Assembly: GCF_050920415.1 (NCBI RefSeq)
Contig: NZ_CP169309.1
Origin: Escherichia coli
GTDB lineage: Bacteria > Pseudomonadota > Gammaproteobacteria > Enterobacterales > Enterobacteriaceae
Direction: 5' to 3' (one strand)
DNA: 64,000 nucleotides
Both the position numbers and the translations under genes were made by a program. Below, in pieces: positions 23,554-57,600 of this stretch (the first letter of the stretch is position 1; each line of letters begins with the position of its first letter). The notes beneath the pieces are model-generated. The model was not told the origin of the DNA. It made no database searches and saw nothing but the letters and a program-made list of their open reading frames with translations.

Positions 23554-23719
23554 TGTTTAATCCTTTTGGTTTAAACCAGATGAGGCATCTTACGCTTACG
23601 CCAAAAAAGAAAGCAATTAACAGCGTATGACTTTGCAGATAATTGTGACAAAGCTCTCTATTGACGTAACCACAAACTTATAAGGGAGATACTCGCACTG
23701 GTGAGAACTTACGACAGGC

Positions 23720-23752
23720 AAAAAAAAACCTGCCATCGCTGGCAGGTTTTTT
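23720..23752 (-). terminator. Rho-independent terminator downstream of typA (bidirectional hairpin)
   Basis: A-run, hairpin cctgccatcgctggcagg, T-run. Confidence 0.8.
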
Positions 23753-23769
23753 ATGACTAAAAAACGAAA

Positions 23770-25593
23770 TTAATCGTCTTTCGGTGCGCGGTTGGCGCGA
23801 CGACGATCGTTTTCCGTCAGGTGACGTTTACGAATACGGATAGAGGTCGGAGTCACTTCTACCAGTTCGTCATCATCGATGAACTCCAGAGCTTGTTCCA
23901 GCGTCATGCGGATAGGCGGAACCAGAACAACGGCTTCGTCAGTACCGGAAGCACGCATGTTGGTCAGTTTCTTACCGGTCAGGCAGTTTACAGTCAGGTC
24001 GTTAGAACGGCTGTGAATACCGATAATCTGACCTTCGTAAACTTCTGCACCGTGACCGAGGAACAGCTTACCACGGTCCTGCAGACCGAACAGCGCGAAC
24101 GCTACCGCTTTACCCTGACCGTTAGAGATCAGTACGCCGTTCTGACGCTGACCCACTTCACCCGGACGTACGTCGTCGTAGTGGCTGAAGGTGGAGTACA
24201 ACAGACCCGTACCAGAGGTCATGGTCATGAACTCAGAACGGAAGCCAATCAGACCACGGCTTGGGATCACGTAGTCGAGACGTACGCGGCCTTTACCGTC
24301 TGGATTCATGTTTTTCAGGTCGCCTTTTCGTTCGCCAAGCGCCTGCATCACAGAACCCTGATGCTGTTCTTCAACGTCCAGAGTCACGTTTTCATACGGC
24401 TCTTGTTTACGACCGTCAATTTCACGGAAGATAACTTTCGGACGGGATACCGCCAGTTCGAAACCTTCACGACGCATGTTTTCGATCAGAACAGACAGGT
24501 GCAGTTCGCCACGACCAGAAACGCGGAACGCATCGGCGTCTTCAGTTTCTTCTACGCGCAGCGCAACGTTGTGTACCAGTTCTTTGTTCAGACGATCCAG
24601 GATCTGACGAGACGTTACGAACTTACCTTCTTTACCGCAGAACGGCGAGGTGTTAACGCAGAAGAACATAGAAACGGTCGGCTCATCAACGGAGAGTGCC
24701 GGCAGCGCTTCAACGTTTTGCGTGTCGCAAACGGTGTCAGAAATGTTCAGTTCGCCCAGGCCCGTGATCGCCACGATATCGCCAGCTTCCGCCAGATCGG
24801 TTTCGATACGTTCCAGACCGAGGTGGCCCAGCACTTTACCGACTTTCGCGTTGCGGGTTTTGCCTTCGCTATCGATGATAGTAACTTGCTGGTTCGGCTT
24901 CACTTTACCGCGCTTGATGCGGCCAATGCCGATAACGCCAACATAGCTGTTGTAATCGAGCTGAGAAATCTGCATCTGGAACGGACCGTCAAGGTCAACG
25001 TCCGGCGCAGGAACGTGGTCAACAATTGCCTGATACAGCGGGGTCATGTCTTCCGCCATATCTTCGTGGTCCAGACCCGCGATACCGTTCAGCGCAGAAG
25101 CGTAAACGATCGGGAAGTCCAGCTGCTCGTCAGTCGCGTCGAGGTTAACGAACAGGTCGAATACCTGATCCACAACCCAGTCAGGACGCGCGCCAGGGCG
25201 GTCAACTTTGTTGATAACAACAATTGGCTTCAGGCCGTAAGCAAACGCTTTTTTGGTTACGAAGCGCGTTTGCGGCATCGGGCCGTCAAATGCGTCAACC
25301 ACCAGCAGCACTGAGTCTACCATGGACATTACACGTTCAACTTCACCACCGAAGTCGGCGTGCCCCGGGGTATCAACGATGTTGATACGGTAATCATTCC
25401 ATTTGATAGCGGTGTTTTTCGCGAGGATGGTAATCCCACGCTCTTTCTCCAAATCGTTGGAGTCCATCACGCGCTCTTGGGTTTCGGCACGAGAGTCGAA
25501 CGTACCGGATTGTTGGAGCAGCTTGTCTACCAGGGTGGTTTTACCATGGTCTACGTGCGCGATGATGGCGATATTACGCAATTTTTCGATCAC
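23770..25593 (-). CDS. typA: Ribosome-dependent translational GTPase TypA/BipA
   Basis: 607 aa; G1 motif [17 protein letters not shown]. Confidence 0.95.
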
Positions 25594-25744
25594 AACTTTG
25601 CCTCAGGCATTAGAAATAGCGCGTTATTGTACACGGATTAATCGCACTACAAAACAGGATCACAAACATCCTCCGCAAACAAGTATTGCAGAGTCCCTTT
25701 GTGATCGCTTTCACGGAGCATAAAAAGGGTTATCCAAAGGTCAT

Positions 25745-25882
25745 TGCACCAATATGGTGCTTAATGTTTCCATTGAAGCACTATATTGGTGCAACATTCA
25801 CATCGTGGTGCAGCCCTTTTGCACGATGGTGCGCATGATAACGCCTTTTAGGGGCAATTTAAAAGTTGGCACAGTTTTCGCT
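25745..25882 (+). promoter_or_regulatory. glnA regulatory region: NtrC enhancer sites and sigma-54 promoter glnAp2
   Basis: TGCACCA-N3-TGGTGC type palindromes at 25745-25761 and 25779-25794; sigma-54 -24/-12 element TTGGCACAGTTTTCGCT at 25866-25882. Confidence 0.85.
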
Positions 25883-30131: not shown

Positions 30132-30236
30132 ATGCTGGAATCAATAATTAATCTGGTATCGAGTGGCGCAGTTGACAGCCACACACCGCAAACTGCCGTT
30201 GCTGCCGTGCTGTGTGCTGCGATGATTGGGCTGTTT
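30132..30236 (+). CDS. Small ORF (34 codons) with GGAGAG RBS between glnG and hemN; possibly yshB
   Basis: ATG at 30132 preceded by GGAGAG; hand translation MLESIINLVSSGAVDSHTANCRCCRAVCCDDWAV; identity with yshB not verified. Confidence 0.3.
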
Positions 30237-30255
30237 AGCTGAAGCTCGTTGTTTA

Positions 30256-30367
<112 letters not shown>

Positions 30368-30477: not shown

Positions 30478-31851
30478 TTAAATCACCCGTGAGAACTGCT
30501 GCATCCGCGCTTTCTGGCGCAGATAGGTATCAAAGCACATGCAAATGTTGCGGATCAGTAAGCGACCTTTCGCCGTTACCTGAATCCCCTTCTCATCCAC
30601 ATCCACCAGCCCATCTTTTGCTAACGGGGCAAGCAGCTTGAGATCTTCTGCAAAGTAGTCAGCGAAGTGCAAATCCCACTGTTGCTCAATGGGGGCATAA
30701 TCCAGACGGAAGTTGCAGATGAGCGACTTAATCACATCGCGACGAATACAGTCATCACGCGTTAGCGCAATACCACGCCACAGCGCATTGCCTTGTTCAT
30801 CCACTTGCTGATAGTACTGCTTCAACTCTTTCTGATTCTGCGCGTAGCAGTCGCCAATCATGCTGATGGCTGAAACGCCCATCCCCAGCAGGTCGGTATC
30901 GCCCTGAGTGGTGTAGCCCTGGAAGTTACGATGCAGCACGCCTTCACGCTGGGCCACCGCCAGCTCGTCATCCGGACGGGCAAAGTGATCCATACCGATA
31001 AACTGATAGCCCGATTGTGTCAGGAAGGCGATGGTTTCCTGCAGGATATCCAGTTTTTGCTGTGGACTCGGCAGGTCAGCATCTTTGATTTTTCGCTGAG
31101 CAGCAAAAATGGTCGGCAGATGCGCATAGTTAAAGACGCTCAGACGATCGGGGTTCAGCTCCGCCACGCGTTTCAGGGTAAAGGCGAAACTCTCCGGCGT
31201 CTGTTTCGGCAGGCCGTAAATCAGGTCGATGTTGGTGGAGGTAAAACCAATCTCACGCGCATGGTTAAGCAGTGCAAAGATGAACTCTTCATCCTGCTCG
31301 CGGTTAACCAGACGTTGCACTTCTTTGTTGAAGTCCTGCACGCCCATGCTCAGGCGATTAAAGCCCTCGGCGCGTAAATGATCGAGTACATCCAGTTCGA
31401 TTTCGCGCGGATCGACTTCGATCGAAATCTCCGCATCGGCATTGAACTGGAAGTTTTCGCGCAGCAGCTTCATCAGCCGGCTGATTTGCGCTTTATTCAG
31501 ATACGTCGGCGTTCCTCCGCCCCAGTGCAATTGGCTGACGTGACGCCCGGCGAACAGCGGTGCACGATGGACGATTTCTTGCTCCAGCGCGTCCAGATAC
31601 TGATCGGCCTTGTGCTGCTGGCGAGTAACAATCTTATTGCAACCGCAGAAGTAACAAAGCTTATGGCAGAACGGAATATGTACGTAGAGAGATAATGGAC
31701 GCTCAGGATAGCGCGCCACGGCTTGTAAAAACGCCTGTTCGCCGAAGTCTTCTGAAAACTCCAGCGCGGTCGGGTACGAGGTGTATCGTGGCCCGGAATA
31801 GTTATATTTCTGGATCAGGGCCAGATCCCAGTCGATTTGCTGTACAGACAT
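30478..31851 (-). CDS. hemN: Oxygen-independent coproporphyrinogen III dehydrogenase (radical SAM)
   Basis: 457 aa; radical-SAM cysteine motif CHKLCYFCGC. Confidence 0.95.
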   Translation of the reverse strand: MSVQQIDWDLALIQKYNYSGPRYTSYPTALEFSEDFGEQAFLQAVARYPERPLSLYVHIPFCHKLCYFCGCNKIVTRQQHKADQYLDALEQEIVHRAPLFAGRHVSQLHWGGGTPTYLNKAQISRLMKLLRENFQFNADAEISIEVDPREIELDVLDHLRAEGFNRLSMGVQDFNKEVQRLVNREQDEEFIFALLNHAREIGFTSTNIDLIYGLPKQTPESFAFTLKRVAELNPDRLSVFNYAHLPTIFAAQRKIKDADLPSPQQKLDILQETIAFLTQSGYQFIGMDHFARPDDELAVAQREGVLHRNFQGYTTQGDTDLLGMGVSAISMIGDCYAQNQKELKQYYQQVDEQGNALWRGIALTRDDCIRRDVIKSLICNFRLDYAPIEQQWDLHFADYFAEDLKLLAPLAKDGLVDVDEKGIQVTAKGRLLIRNICMCFDTYLRQKARMQQFSRVI

Positions 31852-32039: not shown

Positions 32040-32549
32040 TTAGTTGCCCCGCAGCAGACGCATCATGTCTTCTTGCTTCTCGTCTTCTTCCTCTTCTTCG
32101 TCATCGTCATAAGAGAGGCCGAGTTTCTGCATCAACTCATCAATACGATCCAGTTTGGCATCCACCCAGGATTGCTCTTCGGCGCTCAGGGTTTCGCCTG
32201 CCTCCAGACGTTCCAGCAGCGCATCCAGACGCTCATCCGTTTCCAGTAACTCCAACTCCGCCTGCGGTGAAAGCATAGGTTTCTCACTCTTCGGTTTGTG
32301 CTGTTTGGTGACTTTTTCAGTCACGCCCAATGGAATAGGGGTTTTACTGCCAATACGTGGATCTTTCGGTGCGTTCTGGCCTTTGCTGCCTGACGTGGTG
32401 TTACCGCCCGCTGCGCGGCTGCCCGGCGCATGACCACGACGTTTTTTCTGACGCTTACGGTCACGAGCTTCCTGATCCAGCTCCTCGCGTGTTTTTCGAC
32501 GCGCTTTTGCATGACCTTTGCTGCGTGAGTTTGAAGATGATGGTTTCAT
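32040..32549 (-). CDS. yihI: Der GTPase-activating protein YihI
   Basis: 169 aa from [10 protein letters not shown]; highly basic N-terminus, acidic C-terminus. Confidence 0.88.
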
Positions 32550-32616
32550 AATGGTTCGTCTTTTAGCCGTTTTATTCAGTATAGATTTGCGGCGGAATCT
32601 AACAGAAAGCAAGCAA

Positions 32617-32860
32617 AGAAAAAAGGCGACAGATTACTCTGTCGCCTTTTTTCCTGACTCATAACCCTTAACGGGTCTTACAATCCTTGCAGGCCGCCAA
32701 CACACCCTGTTTTTCCATTAGCCGGAACAATCCGTGTTGATTCCATTTCCGTTTAATTACGTCTCCGGACGTTTGTCTTCCTGACAATCCTCTGTCTTCG
32801 CCTCCTGGCGCTCCTGACCCTCATCCTGAGTCATTGTTCCTGTTAGCGTCCTCGCTCTAT
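32617..32860 (-). ncRNA. csrC: CsrC small RNA (CsrA-sequestering)
   Basis: About 244 nt with many GGA motifs on the minus strand; 5' end ATAGAGCGAGGACGCTAACAGG and terminal hairpin GGCGACAGAGTAATCTGTCGCC + U-run match recalled CsrC; location in the engB-yihI intergenic region. Confidence 0.85.
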
Positions 32861-33130
32861 GGGTGCTACTTTACGCCTTTGCTTTAAACAAACAATCAAC
32901 CGCCATCAGTATTTGCACATTTTCAGAGTTTTATATAAAAGCAATTAACTGATTTATATAGTTTATTTGACATGCATCGCAGAATTTTCTCTGCTATTTC
33001 GCATAAAGACTATCGGCAATGTCTCACAAAGCGTATGGCTTTTACTTACAACGCTCACGCCGAAAAATCCGCCTTTTATTATGGTTCAGGTATAATCGCC
33101 GCAAAGCTTTGACTGACGGAGACGACCGCT

Positions 33131-33763
33131 TTGACTAATTTGAATTATCAACAGACGCATTTTGTGATGAGTGCGCCTGATATTCGCCACCTACCTTCCG
33201 ATACCGGAATTGAAGTGGCTTTTGCAGGCCGTTCCAACGCAGGTAAATCCAGCGCGCTGAACACGCTGACTAACCAGAAAAGCCTGGCGCGGACCTCAAA
33301 AACCCCAGGGCGCACCCAGCTTATCAACCTGTTTGAAGTGGCTGACGGCAAGCGTCTGGTTGACCTGCCCGGCTATGGCTACGCGGAAGTCCCGGAAGAG
33401 ATGAAGCGCAAATGGCAACGCGCGCTCGGCGAATACCTCGAAAAACGTCAGAGCCTGCAAGGCCTGGTGGTACTCATGGATATTCGCCATCCGTTGAAAG
33501 ACCTCGATCAGCAGATGATTGAGTGGGCGGTAGACAGTAATATCGCCGTACTGGTGCTGCTGACCAAAGCGGACAAACTGGCAAGCGGCGCACGTAAAGC
33601 ACAATTGAATATGGTGCGTGAAGCAGTGCTGGCGTTTAACGGTGATGTGCAGGTTGAAACGTTCTCTTCGCTGAAGAAGCAAGGCGTGGACAAGCTGCGG
33701 CAGAAACTGGATACCTGGTTTAGCGAGATGCAGCCTGTCGAAGAAACGCAGGACGGCGAATAA
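33131..33763 (+). CDS. engB: Ribosome biogenesis GTPase EngB (YihA)
   Basis: 210 aa; G1 motif GRSNAGKSS. Confidence 0.93.
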
Positions 33764-33784
33764 TTTTCTTGCCTTAATGCTTGT

Positions 33785-33864
33785 GCCGGATGTGGCGTAT
33801 CCGGCCGGTAAATTCAATAGATTACAATTCTACCGTTGGCCTGATAAACATGGCGCATCAGGCA
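33785..33864. repeat. REP-like palindromes downstream of engB
   Basis: gccggatgtggcgtatccggc and gcctgataaacatggcgcatcaggc palindromes. Confidence 0.6.
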
Positions 33865-33886
33865 TTACAGATCTTTTCTTTCGCCC

Positions 33887-33997
33887 AATAAAAAACGCCC
33901 CAGTCATTACTGACTGGGGCGGCTAAAATATTCAGCCAAATCCGATTACGTGAAGTAAAAGGTCTGAAAGATAGAACATCTTACCTCTGTACCCTAC
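33887..33997 (-). ncRNA. spf: Spot 42 small RNA
   Basis: Minus-strand sequence GTAGGGTACAGAGGTAAGATGTTCTATCTTTCAGACC...GACTGGGGCGTTTTTTATT matches recalled Spot 42 including terminator; located downstream of polA. Confidence 0.93.
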
Positions 33998-34144
33998 GCG
34001 ACTAACTTTACTCTTTTTTGTTCAGTTCAGAAAGCATTTTTTGTAATTTTTTTTCAGTTGTTGCATAGGAATTTCTAATAGCCATCACAAAACGTGACAG
34101 CTTATGTTGCTTACTTACGAAAAAAGGGCATGTTCAGGCGAATC

Positions 34145-36931
34145 TTAGTGCGCCTGATCCCAGTTTTCGCCACTCCCCACTTCCACCAGCAACGGCACAT
34201 CCAGACGAGTACAATTCTCCATCAGTTGATGGATTTTCTTCGCTACCGCCTCAAGATCATCTTTATGAACTTCAAATACCAGTTCATCGTGTACCTGCAT
34301 AATCATACGCACACGCGGTTGCTCAGCTTGTAACCACGCATCAACGGCAATCATCGCTCGTTTGATAATGTCGGCGGCGGTTCCCTGCATTGGCGCGTTA
34401 ATGGCTGCACGTTCAGCCGCTGCACGACGAGCACCATTGCTGGATTTGATATCCGGCAGATACAGACGGCGTCCGTCCAGCGTTTCAACGTAGCCCTGCT
34501 CTTTCGCCTGAGCACGGGTGCGTTCCATATACTCCAGCACGCCAGGGTAGCGTTCGAAGTAAAGGTCCATGTACTTCTGCGCTTCTTTACGCGGAATGTT
34601 CAATTGTCGCGCCAGACCGAAAGCACTCATGCCATAAATCAGACCAAAGTTGATCGCTTTCGCGCTACGGCGTTGCTCGCTGGTGACGGTTTCCAGTGGC
34701 AAACCAAACACTTCTGCCGCCGTAGCCCGGTGGATATCTTTTCCTTCCGCGAATGCGGTCAGCAAGCCTTTGTCACGCGAGAGATGCGCCATAATGCGCA
34801 GTTCAATCTGCGAGTAGTCCGCCGAGACAATCACATAATCCTCTGGCGCAATAAACGCCTGGCGGATACGACGACCTTCTTCGTTACGCACCGGAATGTT
34901 TTGCAGGTTAGGATCGGTTGACGATAAACGTCCCGTTGCGGTTACTGCCTGGTGATAAGAGGTATGTACACGCCCGGTTTTCGGGTTGATCATCAGCGGC
35001 AGCTTGTCGGTGTAGGTCGATTTCAGCTTCGCCAGACCACGATACTCCAGAATCACTTTTGGCAACGGATAGTCCAGCGCCAGTTCTTCCAGTACCTCTT
35101 CCGACGTTGACGGCGCACCACCCGGCGTTTTCTTCAGCGGTTTAATGCCCTGTTTTTCAAACAGAATGGTTTGTAACTGCTTGGTGGAAGAAAGGTTAAA
35201 TTCTTCACCTGCAATTTCATGCGCTTTCTTTTCCAGCTCAGCCAGACGTAGAGTGAGCTCTTCAGAATGATTATGAAGCACTTTCGGATCGATCTTCACA
35301 CCGTTACGTTCAATGCGTGAAAGCACCGGCACCAAAGGCATTTCGATATTCTCGAAGACGTTCAACGGCCCTTTGTGTTTTTGCAGATCCGGCCACATTT
35401 TCAGATGCAACTGCAAGGTGACATCTGCATCTTCGGCGGCGTAACGTCCGGCCTCTTCGAGGGCAATCTGGTTAAAGGTCAGTTGATTTTTGCCTTTACC
35501 AGCAATCTCTTCAAAAGTGATGGTTTTGTGCTTCAACCAACGTTCCGCGAGGCTGTCCATATCGTGACGTCCGGCAACGCTATTGAGAATGTAGGACTCC
35601 AGCATGGTATCAAACGCAATCCCACGTAGTTCAATGCCGTAGTTCGCCAGAATACCGCGATCGTATTTCAGGTTTTGCCCGACCTTCAGCGCCTTTTCAT
35701 CTTCCAGCAGCGGTTTTAGCAACTCGAGTGCACGCTCGCGAGAGATTTGATCGGGCGCATCAAGATAATCATGAGCAACCGGAATATATGCCGCTACGCC
35801 TGGCTCGATAGCAAAAGAAAGCCCGACCAGGTTAGCAGAGATGTTATCAAGGCTGTCGGTTTCGGTATCAAATGCAAATACCGGCGCTTTTTCCAGCTTC
35901 GCAATCCACTCTTTCAGTGTTTCTTCATCAAGGATGGTGACGTAGTTGTCATAAGAAATCACCGTTGCCGTCACTTCTGGCGCTTCGTCTACAACACTGG
36001 TTTGCTGCGGCTTCGCGGCTGGTTTTTCCCCTTTGGCCTGTAGCCATTTTCCCGCTTCGACATCAGCAGTCCAGCGTTTGAACTCATACTTTTTGAACAG
36101 CCCTAACAACTCTTCTGCCGCCGGTTGCTGCACTTCCAGTTGTTCACAGGTCAGCTCCAGTTCAACGTCGGTTTTAATCGTCGCCAGCTGGTATGAGAGA
36201 TAAGCCACTTCTTTGTTTTGCTCGAGCTTCGCCGCCATTGTTTTCGCGCCACGGAAGCTTAGGCCAGCAATTTTTTCCGGCTCGGCATACAGCGTATCCA
36301 GCCCGCCAAGACCCTGCAGCAGTGCCTGCGCGGTTTTTTCACCAACGCCCGGTACGCCAGGAATGTTATCAGAGGAGTCCCCCATCAGCGCCAGGAAGTC
36401 GATGATCAGTTCTGGCGGTACGCCGTACTTATTCACCACCTCTTCCGGGCCGAGGATGGTATTCGTCATGGTATTGATAAGCGTAATATTTGGCGTCACC
36501 AGCTGCGCCATATCTTTATCGCCTGTGCTTATCAGCACCGGACGTCCGGCTTTTTCGGCTTCCCGCGCCAGAGTACCGATAACGTCGTCCGCTTCTACGC
36601 CAGAAACCGCCAGCAGCGGCAGTCCCATCGCTTTAACCATCGCGTGCAGGGGTTCGATTTGTGCTCGCAGATCGTCCGGCATTGGCGGGCGATGTGATTT
36701 GTAATGTTCAAACAGTTCATCACGAAAGGTTTTTCCCTTGGCGTCAAAGACCACCGCTGCATGCGTCGGTTTATATTGCATGATCAGACTGCGCAGCATG
36801 TTGAGGACACCATACATCGCACCGGTCGGCTCGCCTGCGCTGTTAGTCAGCGGGGGAAACGCGTGATATGCGCGATAAAGATAAGATGAACCATCTACAA
36901 GGATAAGTGGATTTTGGGGGATCTGAACCAT
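34145..36931 (-). CDS. polA: DNA polymerase I
   Basis: 928 aa; [25 protein letters not shown]. Confidence 0.97.
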
Positions 36932-43092: not shown

Positions 43093-43212
43093 ATGCCTGG
43101 CAGTTCCCTACTCTCGCATGGGGAGACCCCACACTACCATCGGCGCTACGGCGTTTCACTTCTGAGTTCGGCATGGGGTCAGGTGGGACCACCGCGCTAA
43201 GGCCGCCAGGCA
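43093..43212 (-). rRNA. rrfA: 5S ribosomal RNA
   Basis: Reverse complement TGCCTGGCGGCC...GGGAACTGCCAGGCAT, 120 nt. Confidence 0.97.
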
Positions 43213-43315
43213 AATTCTGTTTCATCAGACCGCTTCTGCGTTCTGATTTAATCTGTATCAGGCTGAAAATCTTCTCTCAATCCGCCAAAACATCTTCGGC
43301 GTTGTAAGGTTAAGC

Positions 43316-46208
<2,893 letters not shown>

Positions 46209-46391
46209 TCACAACCCGAAGATGTTTCTTTCGATTCATCATCGTGTTGCGAAAATTTGAGAGACTCACGAACAACTTTCGTTGTTCAGTGTTTCAATTT
46301 TCAGCTTGATCCAGATTTTTAAAGAGCAAAACTTCGCAGTGAACCTTTGCAGGTACACTCTGAAGTATTTTTTATTTAATCACTACAGAGA

Positions 46392-46467
46392 TGGTGGAGC
46401 TATGCGGGATCGAACCGCAGACCTCCTGCGTGCAAAGCAGGCGCTCTCCCAGCTGAGCTATAGCCCC
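46392..46467 (-). tRNA. alaT: tRNA-Ala (UGC), rRNA spacer tRNA
   Basis: Reverse complement GGGGCTATAGCTCAGCTGGGAGAGCGCCTGCTTTGCACGCAGGAGGTCTGCGGTTCGATCCCGCATAGCTCCACCA. Confidence 0.97.
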
Positions 46468-46509
46468 ATAACATGTAGTTAAAACCTCTTCAAATTTGCG
46501 GTGCAAATT

Positions 46510-46585
46510 TGGTAGGCCTGAGTGGACTTGAACCACCGACCTCACCCTTATCAGGGGTGCGCTTAACCACCTGAGCTACAAGCCT
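46510..46585 (-). tRNA. ileT: tRNA-Ile (GAU), rRNA spacer tRNA
   Basis: Reverse complement AGGCTTGTAGCTCAGGTGGTTA...CCCTGATAAGGGTGAGGTCGGTGGTTCAAGTCCACTCAGGCCTACCA. Confidence 0.95.
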
Positions 46586-46653
46586 GTAGAGGTTTTACTG
46601 CTCATTTTCATCAGACAATCTGTGTGAGCACTGCAAAGCACAGTTCTTTAAGG

Positions 46654-48190
<1,537 letters not shown>

Positions 48191-56115: not shown

Positions 56116-57600
<1,485 letters not shown>

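Follow-up and report, generated by a model that had tools for sequence, protein, structure and literature searches.

Two sRNA genes, csrC and spf (Spot 42), were identified in the 64,000-nucleotide stretch of DNA analysed here (the window), both of them on the minus strand and one on either side of the ribosome biogenesis GTPase gene engB. Rfam covariance models were scanned at their curated gathering thresholds, the scan being repeated on the whole 64-kb window, and gene limits were taken from an alignment of the whole polA-to-yihI interval to the curated annotation of E. coli K-12 MG1655. A preliminary description of this DNA had made its identification of the two RNAs depend on Rfam matches, and both families were matched over the full length of their models and far above their gathering scores (Table 1). 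The Spot_42 match starts 10 nt before the annotated +1, for the sole reason that these bases are part of the model.

The neighbouring protein-coding genes were assigned with NCBIfam models. The arrangement that had been described, with csrC upstream of yihI, spf downstream of polA and both RNA genes flanking engB on the minus strand within positions 32617-33997, was borne out by the Rfam matches, the NCBIfam assignments and the alignment to K-12: this span runs from at most 2 nt off the csrC 3′ end to the exact spf +1, with engB in between. engB is divergent from csrC and convergent with spf. The gene order hemN-yihI-csrC / engB / spf-polA was the canonical K-12 order of the curated MG1655 annotation in reverse orientation. 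As judged from the NCBIfam neighbours and the K-12 order, csrC occupied the enterobacterial context typical of CsrC, between yihA/engB and yihI, and spf, with its +1 at 33997, lay at the typical Spot 42 site just downstream of polA on the same strand. The yihI protein showed 0 amino-acid differences from that of K-12.

Table 1. Features located in the window, ordered by position, with the evidence on which each is placed.
Feature	Position	Strand	Evidence and remarks
ES036/CssrF	1010-1052	-	Rfam, 45.8 vs gathering score 37.6
STnc370	23717-23785	-	Rfam, 55.6 vs gathering score 54, marginal
ES222	25675-25782	-	Rfam, above gathering score, 133 bits
hemN	30478-31851	-	NCBIfam
yihI (Der GTPase-activating protein)	32040-32549	-	NCBIfam NF003560, 169.2 bits vs cut-off 90; downstream neighbour of csrC
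CsrC Rfam match (RF00084)	32607-32860	-	277.9 bits vs gathering score 61, E=1.6e-88, model 1-255/255
csrC gene, 246 nt	32615-32860	-	Alignment to K-12 csrC b4457; Rfam match reaches 32607
csrC intrinsic terminator (18-bp stem, GUAA loop, U tract)	32616-32655	-	Terminator scan
Putative csrC -10 hexamer, TAAAGT	32868-32873	-	Read by eye, 7 nt upstream of +1
csrC UvrY-P binding region, by published sequence	33011-33050	-	Exact match, -151 to -190 from +1
engB/yihA (ribosome biogenesis GTPase)	33131-33763	+	NCBIfam TIGR03598, 252.2 bits vs cut-off 124
spf gene (Spot 42), 111 nt in K-12 annotation	33887-33997	-	Alignment to K-12 spf b3864
Spot_42 Rfam match (RF00021)	33889-34007	-	122.8 bits vs gathering score 80, E=5.1e-25, model 1-115/115
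spf intrinsic terminator (11-bp stem with 8 G-C pairs, then UUUUUUAUU)	33896-33921	-	Terminator scan, Rfam hairpin, minimum-free-energy fold
spfP, 15-codon ORF inside spf (MFYLSDLLLHVIGFG, then stop)	33932-33979	-	Translation
polA (DNA polymerase I)	34145-36931	-	NCBIfam NF004397, 1254 bits vs cut-off 720; upstream neighbour of spf
5S rRNA	43095-43210	-	
23S rRNA	43306-46208	-	
tRNA-Ala(TGC)	46392-46467	-	
tRNA-Ile(GAT)	46510-46585	-	
16S rRNA	46654-48190	-	

The csrC gene was identical at 245 of its 246 positions to K-12 csrC (b4457; RF00084, CsrB/RsmB clan CL00106), with which it shared length, 5′ and 3′ ends, terminator, genomic position and 14 GGA motifs. The sole change was an A-to-U substitution at RNA nucleotide 144 (window position 32717), which turns AAAGGAA into AAUGGAA. 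The twelfth GGA, which follows the polymorphic base, is kept, and in the Rfam structure the model position of that base is a non-standard pair already in K-12; therefore, neither the GGA motif nor the helix is altered by A144U.

The preliminary description had called this RNA rich in GGA motifs, and its 14 copies were indeed unsurpassed: across both strands of the 64-kb window no stretch of 246 nt held more, and a stretch of that length averaged 3.0. Compared with dinucleotide-preserving shuffles of csrC (8.9 ± 2.0 motifs, maximum 15 in 2000), the enrichment was only moderately significant, supportive but not decisive alone, and the identification therefore rests on homology and not on that statistic. 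When the motifs were placed on the Rfam consensus structure, hairpin loops held 6 of them and single-stranded linkers 5, the other 3 being partly paired; such an arrangement would be expected of a CsrA sponge. The strong terminator that had been noted was also recovered, as an 18-bp stem followed by a T run, which corresponds to the last hairpin in the Rfam consensus.

The UvrY-P binding sequence published for E. coli csrC consists of a TGTAAG half-site, a 16-bp spacing and an inverted repeat (PMC4682653). In the window, the 18-nt imperfect inverted repeat TGTGAGACATTGCCGATA was located at 33011-33028(-), corresponding to -168 to -151, and the TGTAAG half-site at 33045-33050(-), 16 bp upstream of it; the composite TGTAAG-N16-TGTGAGACATTGCCGATA had a single exact match in the window with 0 expected by chance. 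Both elements are the same in K-12 csrC. By ChIP-exo, UvrY cross-link regions at csrC have been mapped to -223 to -143 and to -49 to +32 (PMC4682653). Repeat and half-site both fall inside the -223 to -143 region, and the three substitutions that distinguish the engB-csrC spacer from that of K-12, at -87 (32947), -102 (32962) and -241, all lie outside both regions. The csrC promoter carries a BarA-UvrY-type upstream UvrY inverted repeat, and activation through it is predicted. A sigma-70 consensus promoter scan of positions 32500-34200 returned no qualifying site, which for csrC is as expected of an activator-dependent promoter; the stretch that contains the putative -10 hexamer is identical to K-12.

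The spf gene was identical to K-12 spf (b3864; RF00021) at 111 of 111 positions, the spfP frame included, and together with the retention of the GGA motifs and the terminator in csrC this agrees with the earlier remark that both genes look intact. The RNA keeps the long 5′ hairpin, an unstructured stretch at about nucleotides 48-60, the second hairpin and the terminator with its U tail, the same three hairpins as in K-12 Spot 42, and its minimum-free-energy fold had a value of -40.6 kcal/mol. The spfP start is the first ATG of spf, at RNA nucleotide 19, and both its position and its length equal those of the 15-codon K-12 spfP frame (b4837), which encodes a small CRP-binding protein (PMC8916003). 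The polA stop precedes spf by 147 bp, as it does in K-12. Differences are confined to two positions of the promoter, outside the transcript: a G-to-A substitution at -40 (34037) and, at about -131 (34128), one inserted nucleotide. In a consensus scan upstream of spf, the only candidate CRP-like site seen was TGTGATGGCTATTAGA at 34074-34089, centred at -84.5 and with 2 mismatches, against a background of 0.25 sites per kb at up to 2 mismatches.

The convergent engB-spf spacer is filled by two REP-like palindromes that we read from the sequence, TGCCGGATGTGGCGTATCCGGCC and GCCTGATAAACATGGCGCATCAGGC (33784-33806 and 33839-33863). Their stems are only about 7 bp long, and an inverted-repeat search of this spacer with a 10-nt minimum found none. 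Compared with K-12, the spacer carries three substitutions, with 33852 inside one palindrome and 33807 adjoining the other.

Of 5426 complete E. coli genomes, 5425 matched the locus, and NZ_CP169399.1 was 100% identical over 1581 bp of it. Only 17 of the 5425 were at least 99% identical over positions 32560-34140, though each sRNA allele is common. When 40 E. coli genomes were drawn at even intervals from the match ranking, 11 had the exact csrC allele and 11 the exact spf allele, taken as 174 nt with 63 nt of promoter; sharers of the exact window alleles include O157:H7 and APEC O1. Relative to K-12, the sRNA genes are better conserved than the sequence around them, with 1 difference in 357 nt (0.3%). 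The four flanking genes had 125 in 5304 nt (2.4%; engB 26/633, yihI 8/510, polA 64/2787, hemN 27/1374), almost all of which were synonymous, and the roughly 605 nt of remaining spacers had 8; two more apparent differences at the end of the alignment arose only from an interval cut 2 nt too short. The divergence of engB (4.1%) was about twice that of yihI (1.6%), hemN (2.0%) and polA (2.3%), with all 26 nucleotide differences synonymous and the protein identical to K-12 YihA. The engB gene found here is a rare allele, possibly imported by recombination.

With the csrC query (32607-32860), 5489 places were matched in 5425 records, some genomes having a second match. Two of these places were on records labelled plasmid, and the csrC of NZ_CP148581.1 was only 87.3% identical to the query.

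The preliminary description had expected both RNA genes to be missed by ORF-based annotation, and the RefSeq/PGAP annotation of NZ_CP169399.1, whose locus is identical, lists neither csrC nor spf. Over csrC, at the window equivalent of 32668-32834(-), it places a pseudo-CDS flagged as 'hypothetical protein; frameshifted; internal stop', and in every one of 40 sampled E. coli genomes the csrC match overlay a 'hypothetical protein'. Taken literally, these entries would make the csrC stretch a decayed protein-coding gene and not an RNA gene, a reading to which we give practically no chance of being correct. The pseudo-CDS itself requires a frameshift and an internal stop, and the longest ORF fragments on the csrC strand there are of 39 and 25 amino acids, whereas the stretch fits the CsrC covariance model with 277.9 bits and all hairpins, is recorded as ncRNA csrC in the curated K-12 annotation and, unlike a decaying pseudogene, is 99.6-100% conserved across most E. 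coli. With ORF fragments of 39 amino acids at most, the coding reading of csrC was rejected. Given these short fragments and the fit to the covariance model, the pseudo-CDS looks like a systematic annotation artefact across E. coli. Automated protein-centred annotation drops both global regulators, the CsrA antagonist CsrC and Spot 42/SpfP of catabolite repression, or overwrites csrC with a spurious pseudogene, and a regulatory reading of this genome should restore csrC and spf, no new biology being implied.

It might also be supposed that csrC, spf or both are present but inactivated in this strain, whether through a damaged promoter or, for csrC, through A144U. The differences from K-12 that could be held responsible are the spf changes at -40 and at about -131, A144U itself and the csrC substitutions at -87 and -102. 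The terminators, the -10 regions, both UvrY cross-link regions and the UvrY inverted repeat are free of them; A144U leaves its GGA in place, and the pairing at its position is non-standard in K-12 as well. Moreover, both exact alleles are widespread in E. coli, as seen in the sampled genomes, and the differences are therefore normal polymorphisms. On these grounds loss-of-function alleles of csrC and spf were rejected, and inactivation is judged very improbable. Intact genes are the preferred reading, and nothing in the sequence speaks against it: the window is almost certainly an Escherichia coli chromosome segment with the canonical polA-spf/engB/csrC-yihI-hemN locus and two independent, intact sRNA genes. 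csrC and spf are here the textbook E. coli sRNAs, already known, in the form of ordinary alleles.

The functions that follow are those predicted for this strain from the characterised K-12 genes, from which we infer csrC and spf expression, the interactions with CsrA, Hfq and CRP, and the regulatory outcomes. CsrC, an RNA of about 246 nt, would bind CsrA dimers through the GGA motifs in its hairpin loops and linkers and sequester them, by which CsrA control of mRNA targets would be relieved; with 99.6% identity to the K-12 RNA, both this sequestration and a turnover via CsrD and RNase E are to be expected. Some 160 bp upstream of csrC, phosphorylated UvrY of the BarA-UvrY system would bind the imperfect inverted repeat and activate transcription (PMC4682653). 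Spot 42, of about 109 nt, would act in an Hfq-dependent manner, base-pairing with mRNAs for non-preferred carbon sources when glucose is available; the 100% identity to K-12 makes Hfq binding and pairing with galK, the classic target, and with other mRNAs probable (PMC8916003). Cells would produce it in glucose, with cAMP-CRP as its repressor, and the 15-amino-acid SpfP, encoded by the same transcript, would bind CRP and so reinforce the feedforward loop (PMC8916003).

A further proposal is that csrC and spf lie within 1.4 kb of each other owing to a shared UvrY input, forming a co-regulated hub that links the Csr and catabolite-repression circuits. Consistent with such an input, ChIP-exo in both E. 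coli and Salmonella places the spf promoter, like csrB and csrC, among the few 'group one' UvrY/SirA sites (PMC4682653). Upstream of spf (33998-34144), a search for the UvrY-type inverted repeat TGTRAG-N6-CTYACA at up to 3 mismatches found none, and the only repeat of this type in the locus was the known csrC site. The pattern was not enriched in the window at the same tolerance, with 26 matches vs 56 expected. For the weaker-site genes that were tested, the summary of the same study describes negligible or modest regulation by UvrY (PMC4682653). We consider a hub of this kind very unlikely, and favour two independent sRNA genes.

Further features were seen elsewhere in the window. The gene yshB, encoding a small membrane protein of 36 codons, was mapped from the RefSeq identical locus to about 30132-30242(+), between glnG and hemN, and is another feature below the usual ORF-length cut-offs. 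Rfam naRNA4 (RF02564) was matched at 30279-30363(-), between yshB and hemN, and at 57447-57517(-), with 71.4 and 85.0 bits, respectively; we take both matches to be REP/BIME-type repeats. Three other Rfam families were matched nearer the start of the window (Table 1). A complete rRNA operon was present at 43095-48190(-); judging from where it lies with respect to polA, it should be rrnA. A StyR-44 match at 46216-46324 falls in its spacer, immediately upstream of 23S.
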